Assembly (NCBI GenBank): GCA_963663275.1
Contig: OY760183.1
Span: 256,001-320,000, forward strand
Source of the DNA: Chloroflexota bacterium
GTDB taxonomy: Bacteria > Chloroflexota > UBA11872 > VXOZ01
Length of the DNA stretch: 64,000 nt
Reading direction: 5' to 3'
Positions 27,081 to 38,116 of the stretch are shown here, in pieces. Within the stretch, counting starts at the first letter, position 1. Each line of letters opens with the position of its first letter. Below the pieces are notes generated by a model. The model had not been told where the DNA came from. It made no database searches and saw nothing but the letters and a program-made list of their open reading frames with translations. Both the position numbers and the translations under genes were made by a program.

Positions 27081-29558
27081 CTACGCCGGGCCTTCTTGCC
27101 GCTCGCGGCGGCGGAAAGTTTCCTCGATCTCCGCGTCGAGTTCCTGCGCCCAATTCCGCACCCGGGAGCGCAGGCGCATGTTCTGGTACGCGCCCCAGAC
27201 CGTCATCGCCGGCGGCACCACCAGCACGGACACCACCAGCGAGTAGAGGATCGTAATCGCCGCCGTGAAGGCGAACTGCTGGAACATGATCTGGGTGGAG
27301 ACCAGCAGCGCGCCGATGCCCAGGGCCGTGGTCAGCGCCGAACCCAGCAGCGCCGAGCCGGTAGTGCGCAGCGTCCGGATGGCCGCCTGCTCCGGGTCGC
27401 GCCGGCGGGCGTACTCCTCGCGGTAGCGATGGATGATGTGGATGGTGTAGTCCACCCCGATGCCGATCGAGAGCGCCGCGATGATCGACGTGATCAGCGA
27501 ATAGGGAATGCCCAGCAGCGCCATCGTGCCGATCACCGAGACGAGCGCGATGACGATCGGCGCCACCGCGATCAGCGCCAGCGCCGGTTGGCGCGCCGTC
27601 ACCCAGAAGAAGAACGCCAGCACGCTGAGGGCGGCCGCGATGATGGTTATCACCGCCTCCGTCTGCCCGTCGGTAATCGCGTCGGTAATCGTAATCGTGA
27701 TGATGCTGTCCGACGTTGCCGTAATGTCAGTGTCTTCGCCGCGCCAGCGCGTCTCTATCTCCTCCTGGATTGCCTTCGTTTGCGCGGCATTGCCGGTATA
27801 TGCCGGAAACTGGAGCAGTATTGAGTCTCTGCCATTGGGATCGTTGGAGAGAAGATACGCCAAGGTGGGGTCTTGCGCCTGGAGCCTGACGAGCGCCTCC
27901 TGCATCAGCCCGGTATCGAGTTGCACGCCGGCGGAGGCTTCCCCGAAGAGCGCGGCCAGTTCCGGGTCGTACTTGTCGCCGGGCTCCCCGCTGTCGTGGA
28001 TCCAGTCGCGCAGGAGCGATTCGTACGAGGCGATGATGGGGCTTGCCGCCGCGCTCGGGCGCAGCCCTTCATCCTCGAAGGCGGTCATGAGGTCCCGCAG
28101 GTTCAGCAGCGTGCGCGTCTCCGCGGCCTCGGCCGTTACAAGCACGTTGACCATCTCCGTGGAGCCGCCAAACGCCGCGTCCAGCGTATCCATGTCCGCC
28201 ATGGTGGGCCCGCCTCTGGGCACCACGTCGCGGAGTTGGAACTCCGAGCCGACTCCCCTGGCCGCAATCCCAAGTCCGACGACAATCACGAACACGACGA
28301 TGAGATAGGGCGCGGGCCTGCGCGTGACTCCCCGCCCCAGCATCTCCGCCAGCCGCTCGACGCCGGGCAGCGCGTGCGCCACCAAACGAGGCTGTTTCAA
28401 CGTGCCGCGCGCTTCGCGCCGCCGGTCGATGAGCGTCCGGCCGGCCGGCACCAGGGTCAACATCACGATGAGGGTCATGCCCACGCCCAAGCCGGCGATC
28501 ACGCCGAAATCGCCCACGATTTCGATGGGAGAGAACAGGCTCACCAGGAAACTGACAATCGTGGTGACGCCGGCCAGCGTCAGCGGCACGGTGACGTTGT
28601 TCAGCCCCACGCGCGCGGCCTCGGCCACCGGCTCGCCCAGGTGGCGTTGCTCGCGGTAGTGCGAGACGATCTGAATCGCGTAGTCCACCGTGAGACTCAT
28701 CATGACGACGGGCACCACCGCCGTCAGCGCGTTGGGCGGGCCGATCAGGCCCAAACCGTACGGGCCGAGCCAGCCCTCCACGCCGATGATCCAGACGAGG
28801 GCCAGGGTCAACCCTCCCAGCGTGAGCAGCAAATCGGTGAACGTGCGCATGAAGAGCAGCGTAAGCCCCGCGATGAGCAGGAGCGTCAGCCCGGACAAGG
28901 GCAGCCTCCCTTCCCGCGTGGCCTGCCGGAAGGCGTCGTCGACCACCACGGTCGAGAGGCTGCTGGCGCGCAGCGGGCCTTCGCTGGCGAGCGCGGCCTC
29001 GTAGATCCGGCGTTCGGCGTCCACCACGCGCTCGTCACCCGTTCTGCGCAGGCGGATGCTGGCAACCGCGACCGGCGTGTCGTCCGCGTCCACGCCGGTC
29101 AGCGCGGCGAGCGCCGGCTGTATCTCCGGGCGGGCGCCGGCCGCGTCGATCTGCTCCTGGGTGACCGCCTCGAAACTCTGCACGCGCAGCAGCGCCTTGA
29201 TCAGCAGCGAGGGCGCGACCACCGGGTCCACCGGCGCCAGAATTCCCCCCACCGTTGGATCGGTGACGACCTCGCCAATCAGGGCGTCCATCTGCGCCAA
29301 TCCCGCCGGAGTGAGCCCGTTGCCCCGGAAGATGAGCGTTACGACGGTGGCGTTGCCGGTTTCACCGAAGCGCTCTTCGATCTCTGCGAGCGCCATGGCG
29401 ACGGCGCTCTCCTCGGGCAGAGACGCAATTGAAGGCGGCAGCGGCGCCCGCCGCGCCGCCCCCGCGGCGAGAAAGATCGTCACGTTCAAGAGCATGAACA
29501 GCGTGAGCCACGGACGCTCGACGACCAGCCGGCTCAACTCGCCGAGAACGTTGCTCAT
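27081..29558 (-). CDS. MMPL/RND-family transporter, copy 1
   Basis: Two-repeat topology with SLTVDYAIQIVSHYRE and GIGVDYTIHIIHRYREE, plus GSALLGSALTT. ATG 29558. Confidence 0.9.
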   Translation of the reverse strand: MSNVLGELSRLVVERPWLTLFMLLNVTIFLAAGAARRAPLPPSIASLPEESAVAMALAEIEERFGETGNATVVTLIFRGNGLTPAGLAQMDALIGEVVTDPTVGGILAPVDPVVAPSLLIKALLRVQSFEAVTQEQIDAAGARPEIQPALAALTGVDADDTPVAVASIRLRRTGDERVVDAERRIYEAALASEGPLRASSLSTVVVDDAFRQATREGRLPLSGLTLLLIAGLTLLFMRTFTDLLLTLGGLTLALVWIIGVEGWLGPYGLGLIGPPNALTAVVPVVMMSLTVDYAIQIVSHYREQRHLGEPVAEAARVGLNNVTVPLTLAGVTTIVSFLVSLFSPIEIVGDFGVIAGLGVGMTLIVMLTLVPAGRTLIDRRREARGTLKQPRLVAHALPGVERLAEMLGRGVTRRPAPYLIVVFVIVVGLGIAARGVGSEFQLRDVVPRGGPTMADMDTLDAAFGGSTEMVNVLVTAEAAETRTLLNLRDLMTAFEDEGLRPSAAASPIIASYESLLRDWIHDSGEPGDKYDPELAALFGEASAGVQLDTGLMQEALVRLQAQDPTLAYLLSNDPNGRDSILLQFPAYTGNAAQTKAIQEEIETRWRGEDTDITATSDSIITITITDAITDGQTEAVITIIAAALSVLAFFFWVTARQPALALIAVAPIVIALVSVIGTMALLGIPYSLITSIIAALSIGIGVDYTIHIIHRYREEYARRRDPEQAAIRTLRTTGSALLGSALTTALGIGALLVSTQIMFQQFAFTAAITILYSLVVSVLVVPPAMTVWGAYQNMRLRSRVRNWAQELDAEIEETFRRRERQEGPA

Positions 29559-29817
29559 GTCCCCACTTCCTGTATGCGGACGCTCCCACACGCGGCGTGG
29601 GCAACCTCGCGGCCGCGGCGGGCGCGCCGCCCAGGCCCACAGTCGTCTCGAAGGTCCGTTCGTGCCGTCCTCTCACCACTTGAGCACTTAGCACTATACA
29701 CGAAAGCGAGCCGAGCGGCATACCCGACTTGACGTGTGCGCCCACAAGCTCGCCCTCCGGCCGGAGAAGCAACGGCACAACCCGGCCGCTAGGCAGAATG
29801 AACTCCCTCTCCCTGGG

Positions 29818-29896
29818 GCGCCCAGGTGCGGGCAATAGGCCTCGGCCACGCAGACGCGCCCGTTCTCATCACAGTACGCAATGATATTCTCACCCA
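29818..29896 (-). pseudogene. Short remnant of a Rieske [2Fe-2S] oxygenase gene
   Basis: Encodes GENIIAYCDENGRVCVAEAYCPHLGA, nearly identical to 32434-32508. Confidence 0.75.
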
Positions 29897-29904
29897 GTCT
29901 CAAA

Positions 29905-29968
29905 TTGACAGCGTATACCATTTTCAAGTACAATATAGTCGAATAGACCGAATAGTCGAACAGACCGA
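29905..29968 (+). promoter_or_regulatory. Sigma70-type promoter with an adjacent 17-bp direct repeat (candidate operator)
   Basis: TTGACA 29905-29910, 18-nt spacer, TACAAT 29929-29934, then atagtcgaatagaccga / atagtcgaacagaccga. Confidence 0.65.
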
Positions 29969-30193
29969 AATGAACTGCCTGTACGCCCCGGGAACGCGCG
30001 CTCAAAGGTGAGTCCGTGCTCCGTTGTCGGTTAGCCTCTCCTTTTTCCTGCCCAGTGGTCGAGTCTGCCCGTAGCGCGCCATGCTCCGGATGGTGTGCCG
30101 GCAGGTCGATCCGCGCGCGGATACTGTGGCTGGGAGGTTCTCATTCACTCTTCCACCAGTCAAGGTTATCACGAGTCCTTGGAGGAAAGACGT

Positions 30194-32227
30194 ATGTCTC
30201 TCGAAGTAGACCGGATCGCGACTCACGAGTTAACGCTGCCGCAAGAACTCGTCCTGATGCTGCTCAATGAGGAAACCGGCTACTTTCGCCAAGTGGTCGG
30301 CTGGGACTTGAACTGCGCAATTGTGGGCGCAATACTCGCTGAGCTATCGCTCCGTTCCCGCATTGACACGGACATGGAATCCCTGAAGCTTCTCGATCCG
30401 ACGGAGACCGGCAACCCGGTCTTAGATACCGTACTCGAGAAGATCGTCAATGAACCCGTTGAACATAATGCCACCTACTGGATCGAGCGGCTTGTCTTTC
30501 GCGCGCCCCAGATCATCGACCGGATTTTGGACCGCTTGGTTGAACTGAAGGTGCTTGACTACCACGACGGCGAATTCTGGACGCTGTCTCGCACTGCGTG
30601 GCAGACGGAAGTGCACAGTGACGTTGGCGAAGGCACCGCGGTTGAGTTCGTCAAGTCGCGCGTGAGCAGGGTGATCTTCAACAATGAGATTCCCGCACCC
30701 AGAGATGTCATCATGGTCTGTCTTCTCAATACGTGCGATGTCCTGCGCTTCATCTTTCACCTCGAAGAAGAGACCGAGGAGCGTGTCCGGCTGATCAGCA
30801 GGATGAACCTGATTGGCCGCTCCGTGGCCGAGGGGGTCGCCGACAACTTCGTCGGGCCGCTGCTCCAGCGGTCCGCGCTTTCCAAACCAATCCCAACAGT
30901 AAAGCTGCAAGACCTGCTGCTCAATCCACACCTGCGCACCGGCAACATTCCCGCGATCTTTGCGGAACTTCAAAAGAAGTACGGCCCAGTGTTTACCATA
31001 CGCCCGCCTCTCTCAGAGCCTCTGTATTTTCTGGCCGGGCCCCGGGTCAACCAGTGGGTGCAACGGAACGGCCGCCATTTCCTGAGAGCCAAGGACTATT
31101 TCACCGACTTCGAGAAAGTCTTCGGCGCATCCGGCTTGATACCGGCCGCGGACGGCGCCGATCACTTCCGGCTGCGCAAGGCCATGTCGCCAGGGTATTC
31201 ACGCGAGAGGCTGGAAGGGCAACTGGACGAAGTGTACCGCAATGCCCGGACGTACATGGCGGACTGGAAGGTTGGCGACTCCTACGCTGCCAATCGCCTC
31301 TGCCGGCGGATGATAAACGCGCAACTTTCGCCGTTCACGGTGAACATTGACTCGCAAGACATCGTCGACGATCTCATGGCGTACAAGGAACGCGCGCTCA
31401 GCACGCACGTCGCGCGGGTCCTGCCCAAATTCATGCTGCATACCCCCGGCATGAAACGCCGGGCGAAAGTCGTCAACGAGGTGCTGGATCGCGTCCTGAG
31501 CGAGCATACGCCCGCCCAGCGCGCCGGCAGTCCGCGGGATCATGCCGACGACCTGCTGAGCCTGCACGCAAGCGACCCGCAATTCCTGCCGGAATCTAAT
31601 ATGGGGTTTATGCTATCGGCCCCGCTGCTTGCCAGCATGTACCTGGGCGATGCGCTGAGCTTCGCGGTCTACGCCATGGCCGCGCAGCCTGAACTCTACG
31701 ATCGGATCAAAGTCGAAGCGGATGCGCTCTTTGGCAACGGCGATCCGGCGGGCGCCGACTTCACGCTGGAGGCAATCGACGTCACGCACCGCTTCCTCAT
31801 GGAATGCATGCGCATGTACCCGGTCGTGCCCGTGTCTATTCGCAACGTCATGAATGCGTGCGTGGTGGAAGGCTTCGAATTGCCGGTCGGGGCGCGGCTC
31901 CACATTGCCACGACCGCCACGCATTATTTGGACGATATCTTCCCTGATCCCTTCACGTTCGATATCGACCGCTATCAGGCGCCGCGCAATGAGCATCGCA
32001 CGCGGGCATACGCCCCGTACGGGCTGGGCACGCATACCTGCCTGGGCACCCGGTTGATGGAACGGCTACTGTCGATCAACGTGCTGCTGATCGCGCATTA
32101 CTTCACACTGGAGGTAGCGCCCGAGAAATTCAAGCGCAAGCTCCGGTTCAGCCCGCTGCCGTCGAATAAACCGAGCAAGAAGCTGAAGTTCGTCATCGCC
32201 GAGCAGAGACGCGCGTTGCTGCCCTAG
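30194..32227 (+). CDS. GPP34 (GOLPH3/Vps74)-like domain fused to cytochrome P450, copy 1
   Basis: N-terminal LTLPQELVLMLLNEETG..GAILAELSLRSRI..GNPVLD..LDRLVE. C-terminal ECMRMYP (ExxR), FPDPFTFDIDRY and YGLGTHTCLG heme motif. GGAGG RBS before ATG 30194. Confidence 0.85.
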   Translation: MSLEVDRIATHELTLPQELVLMLLNEETGYFRQVVGWDLNCAIVGAILAELSLRSRIDTDMESLKLLDPTETGNPVLDTVLEKIVNEPVEHNATYWIERLVFRAPQIIDRILDRLVELKVLDYHDGEFWTLSRTAWQTEVHSDVGEGTAVEFVKSRVSRVIFNNEIPAPRDVIMVCLLNTCDVLRFIFHLEEETEERVRLISRMNLIGRSVAEGVADNFVGPLLQRSALSKPIPTVKLQDLLLNPHLRTGNIPAIFAELQKKYGPVFTIRPPLSEPLYFLAGPRVNQWVQRNGRHFLRAKDYFTDFEKVFGASGLIPAADGADHFRLRKAMSPGYSRERLEGQLDEVYRNARTYMADWKVGDSYAANRLCRRMINAQLSPFTVNIDSQDIVDDLMAYKERALSTHVARVLPKFMLHTPGMKRRAKVVNEVLDRVLSEHTPAQRAGSPRDHADDLLSLHASDPQFLPESNMGFMLSAPLLASMYLGDALSFAVYAMAAQPELYDRIKVEADALFGNGDPAGADFTLEAIDVTHRFLMECMRMYPVVPVSIRNVMNACVVEGFELPVGARLHIATTATHYLDDIFPDPFTFDIDRYQAPRNEHRTRAYAPYGLGTHTCLGTRLMERLLSINVLLIAHYFTLEVAPEKFKRKLRFSPLPSNKPSKKLKFVIAEQRRALLP

Positions 32228-32600
32228 CGCCACTTCAGCGCCGCTCCAGCCGTCTTGGTCGAGCGAATCCGCCGGCAGACTCCACTGCGGCGCCCGCTCT
32301 TCCCGCCCCCCACCAGGCGAAGATCATCCCTGCCATTTCCTGCGTCTCGAGTACCCGCAGCCCCGTGAACCGGGGCGGCGGGGCATAGGGCGCGGCGACG
32401 CACGCGCCCGCCGGCGGCGGGCCCCAGGTCGGAGCCCAGGTGCGGGCAATAGGCCGCGGCCACGCAGACGCGCCCGTTCTCATCACAGTACGCAACGATG
32501 TTCTCACTCATCCAGGTCTGCCGGATGAGTCGCTCCCGCTCGATGGCCTCACGGCTTGCGGCGAAGTACCGGCCCGCGGACACGGGCGCAACTCCGGCAT
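32224..32600 (-). pseudogene. Frameshifted, internally deleted Rieske oxygenase pseudogene
   Basis: Fragments in shifting frames: MPELRP / GRYFAASREAIERERLIRQTWMSENIVAYCDENGRVCVAAAYCPHLGSDLGPAAGGRV / CVAAPYAPPP..LRVLETQEMAGMIFAWWG. The second CxxH ligand pair is missing. Confidence 0.8.
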
Positions 32601-32667
32601 GTTCTCAGGCTGCCGCCGCTGAGTTGACATTGTTCGGTACATCCACAATGTCGAGAGAAAGAAACAC

Positions 32668-32696
32668 TTTACATGTTGAGGAATATCGGCGATAAT
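32668..32696 (+). promoter_or_regulatory. Putative sigma70 promoter for P450 copy 2
   Basis: TTTACA, 17-nt spacer, GATAAT in an AT-rich patch. A second TTGACA lies at 32624. Confidence 0.45.
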
Positions 32697-32909
32697 AGTA
32701 CCAGAGGGTTTGTAGTGTATTCCAGACTGCTTCTCTCTTCTACTGAGAGTGCGGTTCCTGTGCGCCTCAGCAGGTGTGCGACCACTAACATCCCGCGGCC
32801 TTTCTGGATTACCCTACTCCGTTTGCCTTCCCCTACTAGCGAGACTTTGGAGAGAAGTGGGCGCCAATGCAAGGCCCGGGCGCGTAACGACTCACGGAGA
32901 CAAGAGTCT

Positions 32910-34943
32910 ATGAGCCTCATAGAAGCAAGCAAAGCGGTTCACACGCTCAGTATGCATGAAGAATTCGTCCTGATGCTCCTCAATGAGGAGACCGGGTACT
33001 TTCACCAGGTGCCCGGCTGGGATCTGAACTGCGCCGTCATCGGCTCCGTACTCGGCGAACTCTCGCTCATGTCCCGTATTGACACAGATATGGATTCCTT
33101 GAAGGTTCTGGACCAGACGGCAACCGGCGACCCCATCATGGATTCCACTTTGGAGAAGATCGCAACCGAACCCGGGCAACACGACGCGCAGTACTGGATC
33201 GAACGGCTCATCTTTCGCGCGGGGTCGATCATCGAGGAAACATTGGGGCACTTGGTCGAGCGGAAGGCCCTGGACTACCACGACGGCGAATTCTGGACGC
33301 TGGCGCGCACGGCTTGGGAGACGGGATTGCTCACCGAATCCGGCGAAACGACCGTGGCTGAGTTCGTCAAGACGCGCGTTGGCAGGGCTATTTTCAATAA
33401 CGAGATTCCCAGCCCACGCGATGTCGTCATCATCTGCCTTCTCGATACGTGCGATGTCTTGCGCTTCATATACCAACTGGATGAACAGGCGGAAAGACGT
33501 ATCGAGACCATCTGCAAGATGGATTTGATCGGCCGGTCCGTCGCGGATGCGGTCTCCCAGAACCTCGCCGTCCCTTTGCTGCAACGTTCCGCGTTTACAA
33601 AAGAGATTCCGGCGGTGCGTTTGCGTGACCTGCTGTTCAGTCCGCATCTGCGCAGCGGCAACATTCCGGCGGTCTTTGCGGAACTTGCGGAGAAATATGG
33701 GCCGGTATTCGAGTTGCGCCCGCCGTTTTCCGAGCCCATGCTCTTCTTGGCCGGGCCCCGGACAAATCAATGGGTGCAGCGGAACGGGCGCCTCCACCTG
33801 AGAGCCCGGGACTACTTTACCGATTTCGAGAAGGTCTATGGCGCATCCGGCCTGATACCGGCCGTGGACGGCGCTGAACACTTCCGCATGCGCAAGGCCA
33901 TGTCCACCGGATACTCCCGCGAGACGATGGAACAGCAACTGGATGAGATCTATCGTAATGCGCGCGCATTCATGGCGGACTGGAAGGTTGGGGACTCCTA
34001 TACCGCGAAGTCCATGTGCCGGCACTTGATCAACGCGCAAGTTTCGCCGCTTACCGTCAGCATTGAATCGCAAGACGTCATCGACGATCTGATGGCGTAC
34101 AAGGAACGCGGGCTGAACACCCACGTCGCGCGGGTCCTGCCCAAATTCATGCTGCATACCCCCGGCATGAAACGCCGGGCGAAAGCCATCGATACGATAG
34201 TTGAACGAATCGAGAACGTCCATACGCCCGCCCAGCGCGCCGGCCGCACGCGGGACCTTGCGGATGACTTGCTGAGCCTGCACGCCAGCGACCCGCAGTT
34301 CATGCCGGAATCGAATCTGCGGTTCATCTTGTCGGCGCCGCTGCTTGCCAGCATGTACCTCGGCGACGCGCTCAGTTTCGCGGTCTACGCCATGGCCGCG
34401 CAGCCGGAAATCTACGAGAGGCTCCAGGGTGAAGCCGATGCCATCTTCGGCAATGGCGACCCCAAGGCCGAGGACTTTACGCTTGAAGCGCTGGACGTCA
34501 CGCACCGCTTCCTCATGGAGTGCATGCGCATGTACCCGGTTGTGCCTGTGTCTATTCGCAACGTCATGAACGCATGTGTGGTGGAGGGCTTCGAACTGCC
34601 GGTGGGTAAGCGCATCCACATTGCGACGACGGCTTCCCACTACATGAAGAAGGTCTTCCCTGAACCCTTCACCTTCGACATCGACCGGTACAAGGAGCCG
34701 CGCTTCGAGCATCGCAGCCCGGGCTACGCCCCGTACGGGCTGGGCACGCACACGTGTCTGGGCACGCGCTTGATGGAGCGGCTACTCGCGATCAACGTGC
34801 TCATGATTGCGCATTACTTCACGCTCGAGGTAACTCCCGAGAAATTCAAGCGCGCGCTCCGGTTCAGTCCGTTACCGTCGATGAAACCGACCACGAAGCT
34901 GAAGTTCGTCATCGCCGAGCAACGGCATACGCTACCCGCCTGA
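32910..34943 (+). CDS. GPP34-like domain fused to cytochrome P450, copy 2
   Basis: Collinear paralog of 30194-32227 with the same length (677 aa) and the same ExxR and YGLGTHTCLG motifs. GGAG RBS before ATG 32910. Confidence 0.85.
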   Translation: MSLIEASKAVHTLSMHEEFVLMLLNEETGYFHQVPGWDLNCAVIGSVLGELSLMSRIDTDMDSLKVLDQTATGDPIMDSTLEKIATEPGQHDAQYWIERLIFRAGSIIEETLGHLVERKALDYHDGEFWTLARTAWETGLLTESGETTVAEFVKTRVGRAIFNNEIPSPRDVVIICLLDTCDVLRFIYQLDEQAERRIETICKMDLIGRSVADAVSQNLAVPLLQRSAFTKEIPAVRLRDLLFSPHLRSGNIPAVFAELAEKYGPVFELRPPFSEPMLFLAGPRTNQWVQRNGRLHLRARDYFTDFEKVYGASGLIPAVDGAEHFRMRKAMSTGYSRETMEQQLDEIYRNARAFMADWKVGDSYTAKSMCRHLINAQVSPLTVSIESQDVIDDLMAYKERGLNTHVARVLPKFMLHTPGMKRRAKAIDTIVERIENVHTPAQRAGRTRDLADDLLSLHASDPQFMPESNLRFILSAPLLASMYLGDALSFAVYAMAAQPEIYERLQGEADAIFGNGDPKAEDFTLEALDVTHRFLMECMRMYPVVPVSIRNVMNACVVEGFELPVGKRIHIATTASHYMKKVFPEPFTFDIDRYKEPRFEHRSPGYAPYGLGTHTCLGTRLMERLLAINVLMIAHYFTLEVTPEKFKRALRFSPLPSMKPTTKLKFVIAEQRHTLPA

Positions 34944-35121: not shown

Positions 35122-37587
35122 CTATTCCTCCGTGTAGCGCCGCTGCACGGCCTCGATTTCCAGGTCGAGTTCGTCCGCCCATTCCTTCACCTTCGAGCGC
35201 AGCCGCACGTTCTGGTACGCGCCCCAGACCGTCATCGCGGGTGGGACCAGCAGGATGGATACGATCAGCGAGTAGAGAATCGTGATCGACGCCGTGATAG
35301 CGAACTGCTGGGACGCCAGCAGCGGCGAGAACACCAACACGCCCAGCCCGAGCGCCGTCGTCAGCGCGGAACCCAAGAGCGCCGACCCGGTGGTGGCGAG
35401 CGTCCGCACCGCCGCCTGCTCCGGATCGCGCCGGCGGGCGTACTCCTCACGATACCGGTGAATCACGTGGATGGTGTAGTCTACCCCGATACCTACCGAG
35501 AGCGCCGTGATGATCGACGTGACGAGCGAGTAGGGAATGCCCAGCAGCGCCATGGTGCCCAACACCGAGATGAGCACGAGCACAATCGGCCCCACCGCGA
35601 TGACCGCCAGCGCCGGCTGGCGCGCCGTCACCCAGAAGAAGACCGCCAGCACGGTCAGCGCCATGGCGATGGTGGTGCTGATCGCCTCCGTCTGCCGCTC
35701 GGTGATCGAGTCCGTGACCGTGATCGAGATGATCGTCTCTGACGCCGCGGTAATAGCGTCGTCATCGCCGAACCAAAGGGCTTCGATGTCCTCCTGGAGG
35801 GTCTTGGTTGCCCCGGGATCGCCCGCATAGGCCGGGAACTGGAACAGGATGGCGTCGATACCGTTCGGATCGTTGACCAGAATGTGGGCCAGAGTGGGGT
35901 CCTTCGCCTGGATTCTATCGAGCAATTCCTGCATGAGCTGCGGATCAAGCTGCACTCCCGCTGAGGCTTCCCGGAAAAGCGCGGCGAGTTCCGGGTCGTA
36001 TTTATCGCCGGGCTGTCCGCTGTCGGTGGTCCAGTCGCGTATGAGCGACTCGTACGTTGCCTGTATCGGCCCCGCCGCCGCGTTCGGCCGGCGCGCCTCG
36101 TCCGCGAAGGCTTCCGTGAGCGCGCGCAGGTTCAGCAGCGTGCTGGTCTCCGCGGCCTCGGCCCGCACGAGTACCGTGACCATCTCCGTTGAGCCGCCGA
36201 TGGCCGCGTCGATGGTGTCCATGTCCGTCAGCAGGCTACCGCCTCTGGGCAGGATATCGCGAATCTTGAATTCCGACGTGAGCCCCGTGGCGGCGAATCC
36301 AAGCCCAATCGTCACCGCGAGCACCACCGCGAGATAGGGCGCGGGCCTGCGGCTAATGCTCCTACCCAATAACCCCGCCAACCCTTCGATGCCGGGCAGG
36401 GCGGCCGAAATGGGGCGCGGCGGTTTCAACGTGCCGCGCGCTTCGCGCCGCCGGTCGATGATTACGCGGCCGGCCGGCACCAACGTGAGCATCACGATGA
36501 GGGTCAGGCCCACCCCCAGCCCCGCAACAACGCCGAAGTCGCCAACTATGCCAATCGGTGAGAACAGATTCACCAACAGGCTCACAATCGTCGTGACGGC
36601 GGCCAGCACCAGCGGGATGGTGACGTTGCGCAGTCCCGCGCGGGCGGCCTCCACCACCGCCTGGCCCTCGTGCCGCTGCTCGCGGTAGTGCGAGACGATC
36701 TGAATGGCGTAGTCCACGGTGAGGCTGATTACGATGATCGGCACCATTGCCGTGAGTTGGTTTGGCGGGCCGGTGATGCCCAGCGCCTGCGGGCCGAGCC
36801 AGCCCTCCACGCCAATAATCCACACCAGCGAAATGACCAGCCCGCCAAGCGTGAGCAGCAGATCCGCAATCGTCCGCATGAAGAGCAGGATCAGCCCGGC
36901 GATCAACAGCAGCGCCAGCCCGATCAGCGGCCCCATGCCCTCCTCCGTGGCTCTCAGGTACTCATCCTCGATCACCACGGGCGAGAGGCTGCTCACCCGC
37001 AGCGGGCCTTCTTCTTCGCTCACGCGTTCATAGATCGTGCGTTCGGCGTTCCCGATCCGCTCGTCGCCCGTATCGCGCAGCCGGATGACGGCGACTGCAA
37101 CCTGCGTGCCGTCCTCATCGGTACCGGTCAGCGCCTCGAGCGCCTGTTCTATCTCCGGCGGCCCTCTGACGGAGTCTATTTGGTCCTGCGTGAGCGACGC
37201 GGCGCTTTCTACCTGGAGCACGGCCTTGATCAACAACACCGGCGCGATGATGGGATCGACCGGCGCCAGGAGCGCTCCCACCGCCGGATCGCTGACGATC
37301 TCATCGATGAGGGCGTCCATCTGCGCCAGGCCCGCGGGCGTGAGCGCATTGCCGCGGAAGAGAAGCGTGACGACGTTGGCATCGCCGGATTCACCAAAAA
37401 GCTCATCGATCTCAACGATCACGGCGGCGACGGCACTTCCTGGGGGAAGGATCGCCTCGGTATCCAACGGCTGCGCGCGCCGCACCGCACCGGCGGACAG
37501 GAATATCGTAATGTTGATGATCACGAAGATCGTGAGCCAGGGGCGGGTCGTGACCAACCGGCTGAGCCTACCGAGTAAATTGTCCAT
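35122..37587 (-). CDS. MMPL/RND-family transporter, copy 2
   Basis: Paralog of 27081-29558 with the same VDYAIQ and GVDYTIH motifs. GAGAGGAG RBS before ATG 37587. Candidate TATAAT at 37758-37763 (minus strand). Confidence 0.9.
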   Translation of the reverse strand: MDNLLGRLSRLVTTRPWLTIFVIINITIFLSAGAVRRAQPLDTEAILPPGSAVAAVIVEIDELFGESGDANVVTLLFRGNALTPAGLAQMDALIDEIVSDPAVGALLAPVDPIIAPVLLIKAVLQVESAASLTQDQIDSVRGPPEIEQALEALTGTDEDGTQVAVAVIRLRDTGDERIGNAERTIYERVSEEEGPLRVSSLSPVVIEDEYLRATEEGMGPLIGLALLLIAGLILLFMRTIADLLLTLGGLVISLVWIIGVEGWLGPQALGITGPPNQLTAMVPIIVISLTVDYAIQIVSHYREQRHEGQAVVEAARAGLRNVTIPLVLAAVTTIVSLLVNLFSPIGIVGDFGVVAGLGVGLTLIVMLTLVPAGRVIIDRRREARGTLKPPRPISAALPGIEGLAGLLGRSISRRPAPYLAVVLAVTIGLGFAATGLTSEFKIRDILPRGGSLLTDMDTIDAAIGGSTEMVTVLVRAEAAETSTLLNLRALTEAFADEARRPNAAAGPIQATYESLIRDWTTDSGQPGDKYDPELAALFREASAGVQLDPQLMQELLDRIQAKDPTLAHILVNDPNGIDAILFQFPAYAGDPGATKTLQEDIEALWFGDDDAITAASETIISITVTDSITERQTEAISTTIAMALTVLAVFFWVTARQPALAVIAVGPIVLVLISVLGTMALLGIPYSLVTSIITALSVGIGVDYTIHVIHRYREEYARRRDPEQAAVRTLATTGSALLGSALTTALGLGVLVFSPLLASQQFAITASITILYSLIVSILLVPPAMTVWGAYQNVRLRSKVKEWADELDLEIEAVQRRYTEE

Positions 37588-38116
37588 TGCTCTCCTCTCG
37601 AACCTGAGAAAGCCCCGATGCGCGACGGGAACCGCCTCGCGCATCCGGCCGCATGAGCGGCCGCTGCCGCGCGGCAGGCGCTATGCCGCGCTGCCTTGAA
37701 GCCTCGCGGCGGTCTGGCCGTAACCTGCCGGTATCCTGCGTTGCGGCGTGTGCGCCCATTATAGCGTACTGTCGCCAGGCAGCCACACTGGGGGTATGGA
37801 GAGCCTCGCAAACCGCTCGCGCTGCGATAGGCTCAGCGCGAACGACGGCTGCTCGCTCCCGTCATGCTACGCGCGGGCAAGGCCGCGTGTGAACGGCGGC
37901 TTTCCCAAAGATGGTACCGCCACCCCCACACGGCTGAGCCTGCCTTATCTTCAGAAGGGCAAGTGCGGCTTGCGGCCTGGGTCCGGTTTACTGCCTGAGA
38001 CGAGGGAGTCCGGCGGACAGCCCGCGCGCGTGGACGCAAATACAGTAGTAGGATACGCAAAGAACGTGTCATCCCACGGTCTCATGGAGCGGGAGCATGA
38101 CGGCCGGGGTGTGGCA

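Follow-up and report, generated by a model that had tools for sequence, protein, structure and literature searches.

Two adjacent genes in a 64,000-nucleotide stretch of a Chloroflexota genome (contig OY760183.1, positions 256,001 to 320,000; here called the window) each encode a GPP34 domain, which has the fold of eukaryotic GOLPH3 and Vps74, followed in the same frame by a complete cytochrome P450. We consider it probable, with moderate confidence, that such GPP34-P450 proteins are cytoplasmic oxygenases of a conserved cassette that remodels and transports host-derived sterol-like lipids.

The fusion architecture itself is already known. Of the 663 long GPP34 proteins that sponge symbionts carry, 656 consist of GPP34 and P450 according to the main text of Ferreira 2025 (Microbiome 13:4, PMC11706023); this form is named GPP34_L, and the genes of the window are members of this group. 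The first-pass annotation of the window had treated the fusion as unreported, and that claim has been overtaken by the 2025 article. The same account describes GPP34_L as monophyletic and present in most of 16 phyla. It gives one to six GPP34 copies per genome in sponge symbionts, and describes a family confined to symbionts of sponges (and corals), with no member in 85 free-living relatives. Short forms make up 52% of sponge-symbiont GPP34 there and P450 fusions 47.5%, figures by which the earlier statement that bacterial GPP34 is mostly stand-alone is only roughly right. Both architectures are expressed in another sponge, and a fusion of GPP34 to an ABC ATPase is also reported. The only functional proposal published, as set out in that main text, is a secreted effector that binds host phosphatidylinositol 4-phosphate (PI4P) and blocks phagosome maturation, a proposal based on how the domain is annotated in eukaryotes. 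The terms sterol, methyltransferase, MMPL, KshA and signal peptide have zero occurrences in the main text of PMC11706023. Is the GPP34 domain of the long form a PI4P-binding effector with an enzyme attached? Or, is it part of an enzyme that acts within the bacterial cell? Here we set out a different and testable reading of the long form.

The fusion proteins and their recurrent neighbours

The two proteins, paralogs A and B, can be aligned without gaps and share 495 of 675 residues (73%); their genes are 78.6% identical over 1964 bp. Both genes begin with ATG preceded by a Shine-Dalgarno-like sequence, GGAGG for A and GGAG for B. Against a cut-off of 29.1 bits for PF05719 (GPP34), paralog A scores 99.5 bits (E 3.5e-28, profile positions 1-196 of 201) and paralog B 99.2 bits (profile positions 3-199 of 201). 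The second part of paralog A matches PF00067 (p450) with E 1.6e-32; the E values of both domains of paralog B are given in Table 1. The first-pass annotation had described two paralogs, each with GPP34 and then a complete P450 in one frame, and the open reading frames (ORFs) and Pfam matches agree with this. The motifs that it quoted are all present in paralog A, namely LTLPQELVLMLLNEETG at residues 13-29, GAILAELSLRSRI at 45-57, GNPVLD at 73-78 and LDRLVE at 112-117. It had also argued that the fusion is not a read-through, which is borne out in two ways. Both Pfam domains are present, at about 675 residues, in all 120 of the listed proteins among 2676 matches of a protein search, and contigs from sponge metagenomes cross the boundary between the two genes (X4 record 28, covering 32033-32384 and 32449-32994; X2 record 11 covers 32047-32276 at the end of gene A). 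Since contigs bridge the junction between A and B, the tandem pair is not an assembly artefact. Four runs labelled as sponge metagenome contain 28-40% of the sampled words of the locus, with contigs that match it with few differences, in keeping with a sponge-associated carrier; the best-matching of the runs, X1, is possibly the very sample that the genome came from and does not count as independent. None of the listed runs with the locus is an RNA run.

In a species-representative genome collection 84 relatives were found, 80 of which were kept as loci, all in metagenome-assembled genomes (MAGs). The closest are from Chloroflexota MAGs at 75-81% identity. Relatives at 58-69% come from Latescibacterota, Gemmatimonadota, Nitrospira, Acidimicrobiales, Dehalococcoidia, Binatia and Proteobacteria. 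Neighbouring genes were counted in the 62 loci that have full 10-kb flanks, by tblastn with one representative of each family, at least 50% cover and E of at most 1e-10.

Four kinds of gene recur next to the fusion. An oxygenase with Rieske and KshA_C domains is present in 53 of the 62 loci, a methyltransferase with a Sterol_MT_C domain in 39, a protein with the fold of flavin adenine dinucleotide (FAD)-dependent amine oxidases in 30, and an MMPL transporter with a sterol-sensing domain (SSD) in 22. At least one of the four is found in 61 loci. Components of tripartite transport systems are also frequent (AcrB in 27 loci, HlyD in 25 and OEP in 18). The commonest order, seen in 10 loci, has OEP, HlyD, AcrB, the P450 fusion and the sterol methyltransferase on one strand, followed by the Rieske and FAD genes on the opposite strand. 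Of the 49 loci with both genes, 26 have the methyltransferase on the strand of the P450, beginning 21-62 bp downstream of it. When all 80 loci are considered, Rieske homologues lie beside the fusion in 63, and these are 310-440 residues long with the exception of three longer frames. The linkage of fusion and cassette spans several phyla. It also stands out against the rest of the genome: in 35 chromosome-level carriers, 30 of which have Sterol_MT_C matches, 22 of the 37 such matches are within 10 kb of a long GPP34 frame, compared with 0.31 expected under uniform placement.

The families of the methyltransferase, the Rieske oxygenase and the MMPL transporter point towards sterols. The methyltransferase scores 56.7 bits for Sterol_MT_C, for which the cut-off is 21.7, and none of 14 control genomes has a match to this domain; it also matches PF02353, the cyclopropane and mycolic-acid synthase family, with E 2.3e-17. 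Sterol methyltransferases of sponge symbionts alkylate sterol side chains in vitro, according to the main text of Brown 2023 (PMC10070321). A scan of metagenome contigs gave five fusion loci, none of them on the contig names of the methyltransferases assayed in that article. For the Rieske neighbour the best solved relatives are KshA proteins, steroid 9-alpha-hydroxylases (E 3.5e-23). The same protein was considered as the sterol C-4 demethylase SdmA and rejected, at 27.3 bits against an NCBIfam cut-off of 600. A homologue of the transporter in one of the related loci (L010:12532-15006) has the Pfam domains MMPL and Sterol-sensing.

The window's genome, a single contig of 3.53 Mb that is 99.57% complete, gave no match with either SQHop_cyclase_C or squalene epoxidase. 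In the 35 other carriers a cyclase match was absent from 25 and strong in 6, and in the three of the latter that were checked (G017, G018 and G028) the strong match is far from the fusion locus. With few carriers having a cyclase and the window's genome having none, the lipid would be made by another organism, most simply the host. The lack of a cyclase in this genome and in most carriers also sets the cassette apart from the ERG24-CYP51-LSS clusters described in sponge symbionts.

A separate observation concerns large cyclase-like frames. Frames of 1137-1184 residues that match SQHop_cyclase_C with E 1e-53 to 1e-57 are present in G017 (C1:751914-752888), G031 (C1:4178645-4179619), G026 and G027, and could represent a large and unusual kind of cyclase-like protein. 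Those of G017 and G031 adjoin the sterol methyltransferase. The frame in G017 (1143 residues), which is a weaker match than the distant cyclase of that genome, also adjoins the GPP34-P450 locus.

The N-terminal domain and the P450

The first-pass annotation assigned the N-terminal 225 or so residues to the GPP34/GOLPH3 fold, and Pfam, profile searches and structure prediction with Foldseek all agree. A search with the single sequence matched Vps74 weakly (E 0.0035). A profile built from 56 relatives matched GOLPH3 (3kn1) with E 1.7e-18 and Vps74 with E 1.3e-16. The AlphaFold2 model of residues 1-240 of paralog A has a mean predicted local distance difference test (pLDDT) score of 86.4 and a predicted TM-score (pTM) of 0.82. 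When compared with the PDB by Foldseek, its best eight matches were all GOLPH3 (9qpq_B, 3kn1) or Vps74 (2zii, 2zih, 4tu3), with E 9.1e-9 to 1.7e-6 and TM-scores of 0.53-0.68; the ninth match had E 0.5. Profile and structural likeness to GPP34/GOLPH3, the absence of which would have spoken against the assignment, is thus present in this region. GOLPH3 and Vps74 require a beta-hairpin to bind PI4P and to oligomerise. In the bacterial domain a beta-hairpin is modelled at residues 121-131 (strands 121-124 and 128-131), and its tip, HDGE, is polar. Seven polar residues are invariant in the bacterial family: R56, D58, D60, D78, W96, R156 and R197.

The PI4P pocket of GOLPH3 consists of W81, R90, R171 and R174 and is located at the N-terminus of helix alpha6, and its Vps74 equivalents are W88, R97, K178 and R181, as given in the main text of Wood 2009 (PMC2806290). 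Each of the double substitutions W81A/R90A and R171A/R174A abolishes phosphoinositide binding in GOLPH3 according to the same text. We compared these positions with the bacterial domain through the sequence-profile alignment and the secondary structure of the model rather than superposed coordinates. The column of R90 is Val44 in paralog A, is Ala in 47 of the 56 relatives, and is Lys or Arg in none of these or of 36 diverse fusions. R171 corresponds to Pro105, a position at which 32 of the 56 have Asp or Glu. R174 corresponds to Ile108, and the window's subfamily has Ile, Val or Leu there; the column is often basic in short forms and in a distant fusion subfamily (Arg in 29 and Lys in 4 of the 56). 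The column of W81 falls at Val35/Gly36, with Trp37 offset by one or two positions. The 10-residue loop before alpha6 of GOLPH3 has no counterpart, and the model has a single continuous helix at 93-117. The domain is also acidic, with an isoelectric point (pI) of 4.65 in A, which has 21 Lys and Arg against 38 Asp and Glu, and of 4.55 in B, unlike the P450 part with a pI of about 9. No N-terminal hydrophobic or twin-arginine signal and no membrane helix was found in either paralog, the sole hydrophobic 19-mer being a buried core helix, and a twin-arginine motif was present in none of 141 full-length relatives. Judged from the alignment and the predicted structure, the canonical PI4P mechanism fails for the long form, which appears to have a domain without the GOLPH3 pocket.

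GPP34 is found with partners other than P450. Taking the 150 best representatives of the domain, we found GPP34 matches in 140, with P450 also matched in 25, STAS in three and Rieske in one. The other fusion partners (STAS, Rieske and ABC ATPase) are cytoplasmic too. Several of the partners work at the inner face of the membrane. Side observations in this set are a tandem GPP34-GPP34 protein of 444 residues, a GPP34-GPP34-P450 protein of 872 residues and STAS-GPP34 proteins of 355-369 residues (among P0135, P0137, P0245, P0248 and P0267).

A proline-rich hinge follows the GPP34 domain. P234 in the hinge is invariant, and a distant fusion subfamily has the form PGLPxxGN. In eukaryotic P450s of this class a membrane anchor stands just before the proline-rich hinge. 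The full-length model has a pTM of 0.72, and residues 222-228 of the linker have a pLDDT below 50. A complex prediction for GPP34 (1-225) and P450 (232-677) gave a score of 0.00 and is used neither for nor against any arrangement. The GPP34 domain has no signature of a cofactor-binding family and therefore cannot supply electrons to the enzyme.

The P450 has the expected heme-binding features. Its heme loop is YGLGTHTCLG, of the form FxxGxxxCxG, and a heme-thiolate loop is present in 75 of 78 related loci. A set of 36 diverse fusions shows no variation at the cysteine ligand C616, at R540 of the ExxR motif or at H324, R328 and R593, and E537 of ExxR is nearly invariant there (at least 90%). 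The I-helix is atypical. At residues 476-482 of paralog A (31619-31639), and at the same place in B, ASMYLGD replaces (A/G)Gx(D/E)T. The pattern A[SA][MV]Y[LV]GD was found in 71 of the 78 loci, none of which has AGx(D/E)T; the distant fusion subfamily retains an AGxDT I-helix.

By sequence, the closest solved structure of the P450 is CYP184A1 (7wzl, E 2.8e-24), which was crystallised with oleic acid. Taxadiene hydroxylase, CYP51, BM3 and CYP3A follow, a generic eukaryote-like class. Foldseek with the full-length model likewise gave generic P450 matches only and assigned no substrate, and no NCBIfam equivalog reached its cut-off with the fusion proteins. CYP51 was tried as an identity for the enzyme and rejected: the best CYP51 match (E 3.5e-17) is weaker than those to CYP184A1 and taxadiene hydroxylase, and AGHHTS of CYP51 aligns with ASMYLG here. 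The His-Thr signature of the I-helix is the hallmark of CYP51. As a side observation, the only P450 without GPP34 in the window's genome (C1:3366345-3367586) matches Pfam with E 1.1e-93, compared with E 1e-31 to 1e-35 for the fused ones.

Weighing the possible roles

In the reading that we favour, the cassette would have spread horizontally and would import or export a host-derived sterol or sterol-like lipid and alter its chemistry, with the fusion as one of its enzymes. The P450 would oxidise this lipid at the cytoplasmic face of the membrane, and the GPP34 domain would stand where eukaryotic P450s have their membrane anchor. The domain, itself non-catalytic, may be an adaptor that keeps the P450 where it acts, bound either to a membrane protein (the transporter encoded in the cassette, for example) or to a lipid other than PI4P. 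GOLPH3 retains Golgi enzymes. By analogy, the most likely role of GPP34 is that of a general positioning adaptor, similar to GOLPH3 with Golgi enzymes and lacking the phosphoinositide pocket. The mechanism suggested in the first-pass annotation, in which the domain targets the P450 to a membrane or lipid, stands in part. A lipid-related role is plausible given the lipid and sterol neighbours, the transporters of the resistance-nodulation-division (RND) and MMPL type and the position of the domain where an anchor would be. GOLPH3-style targeting through PI4P is not supported, with Val, Pro and Ile at the positions of R90, R171 and R174, a pI of 4.6 and a polar hairpin tip.

Several points weigh against a sterol-remodelling oxygenase. 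The adaptor role is the weakest link of the proposal. The GPP34 domain is acidic, and its hairpin tip, HDGE, is polar. The acid-alcohol pair of O2-activating P450s is missing from the I-helix, so that the reaction may be something other than ordinary hydroxylation. The solved P450s that come closest (CYP184A1, BM3, CYP51 and CYP3A) are a generic set with similar scores. The FAD neighbour resembles LkcE and, more weakly, 2b9w, a 'putative aminooxidase', and no sterol enzyme; neither a ferredoxin nor a reductase was seen among the cassette genes. The locus in the window has no methyltransferase and only broken remnants of the Rieske gene. In addition, genes were called by ORF and tblastn with no annotation pipeline, and since a large share of the 80 loci belong to MAGs that are related to one another, the counts are inflated and not independent.

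How do the alternatives compare? The published effector, which would bind host PI4P and stop phagosome maturation with the P450 as a passenger or accessory in the long form, seems to us very improbable for these proteins. The restriction of the family to symbionts fits it, as do PI4P binding by eukaryotic GOLPH3 and Vps74 and the often basic residue at the R174 position in short forms and the distant subfamily. For the long form, the loss of the pocket residues whose substitution abolishes binding in GOLPH3, the acidity of the domain and the lack of a signal peptide argue against it, as does the missing loop before alpha6; the term signal peptide is nowhere in the main text that makes the proposal. 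A heme enzyme that needs reducing partners, and that is encoded with S-adenosylmethionine- and Rieske-dependent enzymes and with inner-membrane transporters, is also an unlikely protein to secrete. Instead of sterols, the substrates of the cassette might be fatty acids, terpenoids, toxic secondary metabolites or similar hydrophobic molecules of the sponge, which a detoxifying or fatty-acid P450 would oxidise and the transporters pump out. CYP184A1 with its oleic acid, followed by BM3, the LkcE-like FAD protein, the PF02353 match of the methyltransferase and the tripartite OEP-HlyD-AcrB efflux genes directly upstream in 18-27 of the 62 loci are all in line with this. We regard it as unlikely in view of the Sterol_MT_C domain and its absence from the control genomes, the in vitro sterol methylation by sponge-symbiont enzymes of the same family (main text of Brown 2023), the steroid 9-alpha-hydroxylases nearest to the Rieske protein and the sterol-sensing signatures of the MMPL transporters.

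Another alternative concerns the N-terminal domain alone. GPP34 could be a ligand-binding or regulatory module that hands a lipid substrate to the P450, as the first-pass annotation had also suggested, or that gates or inhibits it. In Actinobacteriota, 8 of 13 and 17 of 19 genomes have stand-alone GPP34 no more than five genes away from a P450 (main text of PMC11706023), the pTM of the full-length model may mean a defined arrangement of the domains, and the seven invariant polar residues could line a site. The only known lipid cavity of the fold is the headgroup pocket, however, which is lost here, and the linker is poorly defined in the model. Fusions to STAS and ABC ATPase and the tandem forms fit a general adaptor better than a substrate-specific carrier. 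Since GPP34 is fused to unrelated partners and occurs in tandem, with all partners cytoplasmic, we favour the adaptor and consider the ligand-binding or regulatory module quite unlikely.

A more specific version of the favoured reading is possible, although we hold it as doubtful. In this version GPP34 would be a prokaryotic adaptor that docks the P450 on the SSD transporter or the membrane, and the cassette would import host sterols and convert them to unusual sponge sterols. If this were true, the GPP34 'symbiosis marker' would mark sterol remodelling and not phagosome evasion, and symbionts that lack genes for making sterols could leave their mark on the sponge sterol record, its side-chain-alkylated biomarkers included; the atypical I-helix would then be a sign of unusual P450 chemistry on a sterol. 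The broader proposal of a lipid-remodelling cassette has consequences of its own. A widespread marker gene of sponge symbiosis would concern lipid metabolism, which would bear on the debate over the makers of unusual sponge sterols, the oldest animal biomarkers, and would make it possible to study in bacteria the role that the GOLPH3 fold had before the Golgi existed. Among the publications searched we found none that links GPP34 to sterol genes, although the supplements of Ferreira 2025 and Brown 2023 may show some of the neighbours.

The locus in its genome and among known systems

The two fusion genes are flanked by paralogous transporters of the MMPL/HAE3 type, and further out by unrelated housekeeping genes (Table 1). 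Transporter A matches NCBIfam models for HAE3 (E 1.5e-60), HpnN-like (E 3.3e-27) and Patched (E 1.9e-12) proteins, and its best PDB matches are Patched-1, MmpL3/4/5, NPC1-related proteins and HpnN. Transporter B resembles the same groups of proteins. A broken Rieske remnant lies upstream of each fusion gene. The larger remnant stops exactly where gene A ends, and its tblastn pieces are at 288589-288380, 288408-288295 and 288308-288228 of the genome. A stretch of 80 bp at 29817-29896 is 93.75% identical to 32431-32510, compared with 76-79% for the flanking genes. The G+C content of 30001-34000 is 0.59-0.60, against 0.63-0.67 in the flanks and 0.63-0.70 across most of the window, and the lower value at the P450 pair fits horizontal acquisition.

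Table 1. Features of the fusion locus, in window coordinates
Feature	Position	Strand	Basis
Paralog A, GPP34-P450 fusion, 677 aa (P0001)	30194..32227	+	translation, Pfam, upstream GGAGG
GPP34 (GOLPH3/Vps74-fold) domain of paralog A, residues 15-213	30236..30832	+	Pfam, AlphaFold2, Foldseek
P450 domain of paralog A, residues 247-652	30932..32149	+	Pfam, Cys616, E537/R540
Paralog B, GPP34-P450 fusion, 677 aa (P0002)	32910..34943	+	translation, Pfam, upstream GGAG
GPP34 domain of paralog B, residues 17-216	32958..33557	+	Pfam E 4.2e-28
P450 domain of paralog B, residues 248-648	33651..34853	+	Pfam E 2.8e-35
MMPL/HAE3-type RND transporter A, 836 aa, sterol-sensing-domain class	27081..29591	-	NCBIfam, PDB matches
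MMPL/HAE3-type RND transporter B, 840 aa, paralog of A	35122..37644	-	75.7% DNA identity
KshA-like Rieske oxygenase remnant	32228..32589	-	residues ~15-154 of ~358, three frames; tblastn
Second, shorter Rieske remnant	29694..30005	-	~27-74 residues align

Elsewhere in the same genome MMPL, P450, Rieske and FAD genes stand in an intact arrangement at 2.075-2.083 Mb (C1:2075666-2083319); a methyltransferase gene lies on its own at 2.549 Mb (C1:2548787-2549818). The genome has three long GPP34 copies and one short, and three of its four P450s are GPP34 fusions. At C1:1667983-1670168 (L085:4984-7169) the short copy, its only stand-alone GPP34 (219 residues, Pfam E 6.7e-46), is transcribed divergently from a gene with the N-terminal domain of neutral/alkaline ceramidase (PF04734, E 1.3e-10), a eukaryote-like lipid enzyme. 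An integrase-like gene adjoins this pair.

The closest known system is GPP34_L. It has the same Pfam domains in the same order, about 675 residues, the same lineages (Chloroflexota and others) and several copies per genome, and there is no architectural difference from the genes of the window; only the functional reading differs. GOLPH3 and Vps74 have the same fold as the N-terminal domain, in which a beta-hairpin is modelled at residues 121-131. The bacterial domain, however, is only about 18-20% identical to them, is acidic, is fused to an enzyme and belongs to a cell that has no Golgi; it retains neither the PI4P pocket residues nor the loop ahead of helix alpha6.

BM3 and the CYP51-ferredoxin of Methylococcus capsulatus are, like the fusion, bacterial P450s of the eukaryote-like class that carry a second domain, and the BM3 heme domain and the Methylococcus CYP51 are among the nearest structures of the fusion P450. 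Unlike in those proteins, the extra domain here is N-terminal. Microsomal P450s are similar in that a non-catalytic N-terminal module stands directly ahead of the proline-rich hinge. In place of their anchor, the module here is a soluble acidic domain of 200 residues with no transmembrane helix.

The sterol clusters of sponge symbionts (ERG24-CYP51-LSS, main text of Kelly 2022, PMC9531527; sdmA/sdmB, main text of Brown 2023, PMC10070321) occur in the same hosts and phyla and share with the fusion cassette a sterol methyltransferase as a frequent member. The main text of neither article mentions GPP34. The fusion cassette differs from those clusters in that its P450 is not CYP51 and that strong cyclases, where checked, are distant from the fusion. 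In actinobacterial steroid catabolism (KshA/KshB and CYP125), a KshA-like Rieske oxygenase is encoded beside a P450, as it is here. The recurrent neighbours of the fusion, however, include no KshB-type reductase or side-chain degradation genes, and in their place stand the methyltransferase and the transporters.

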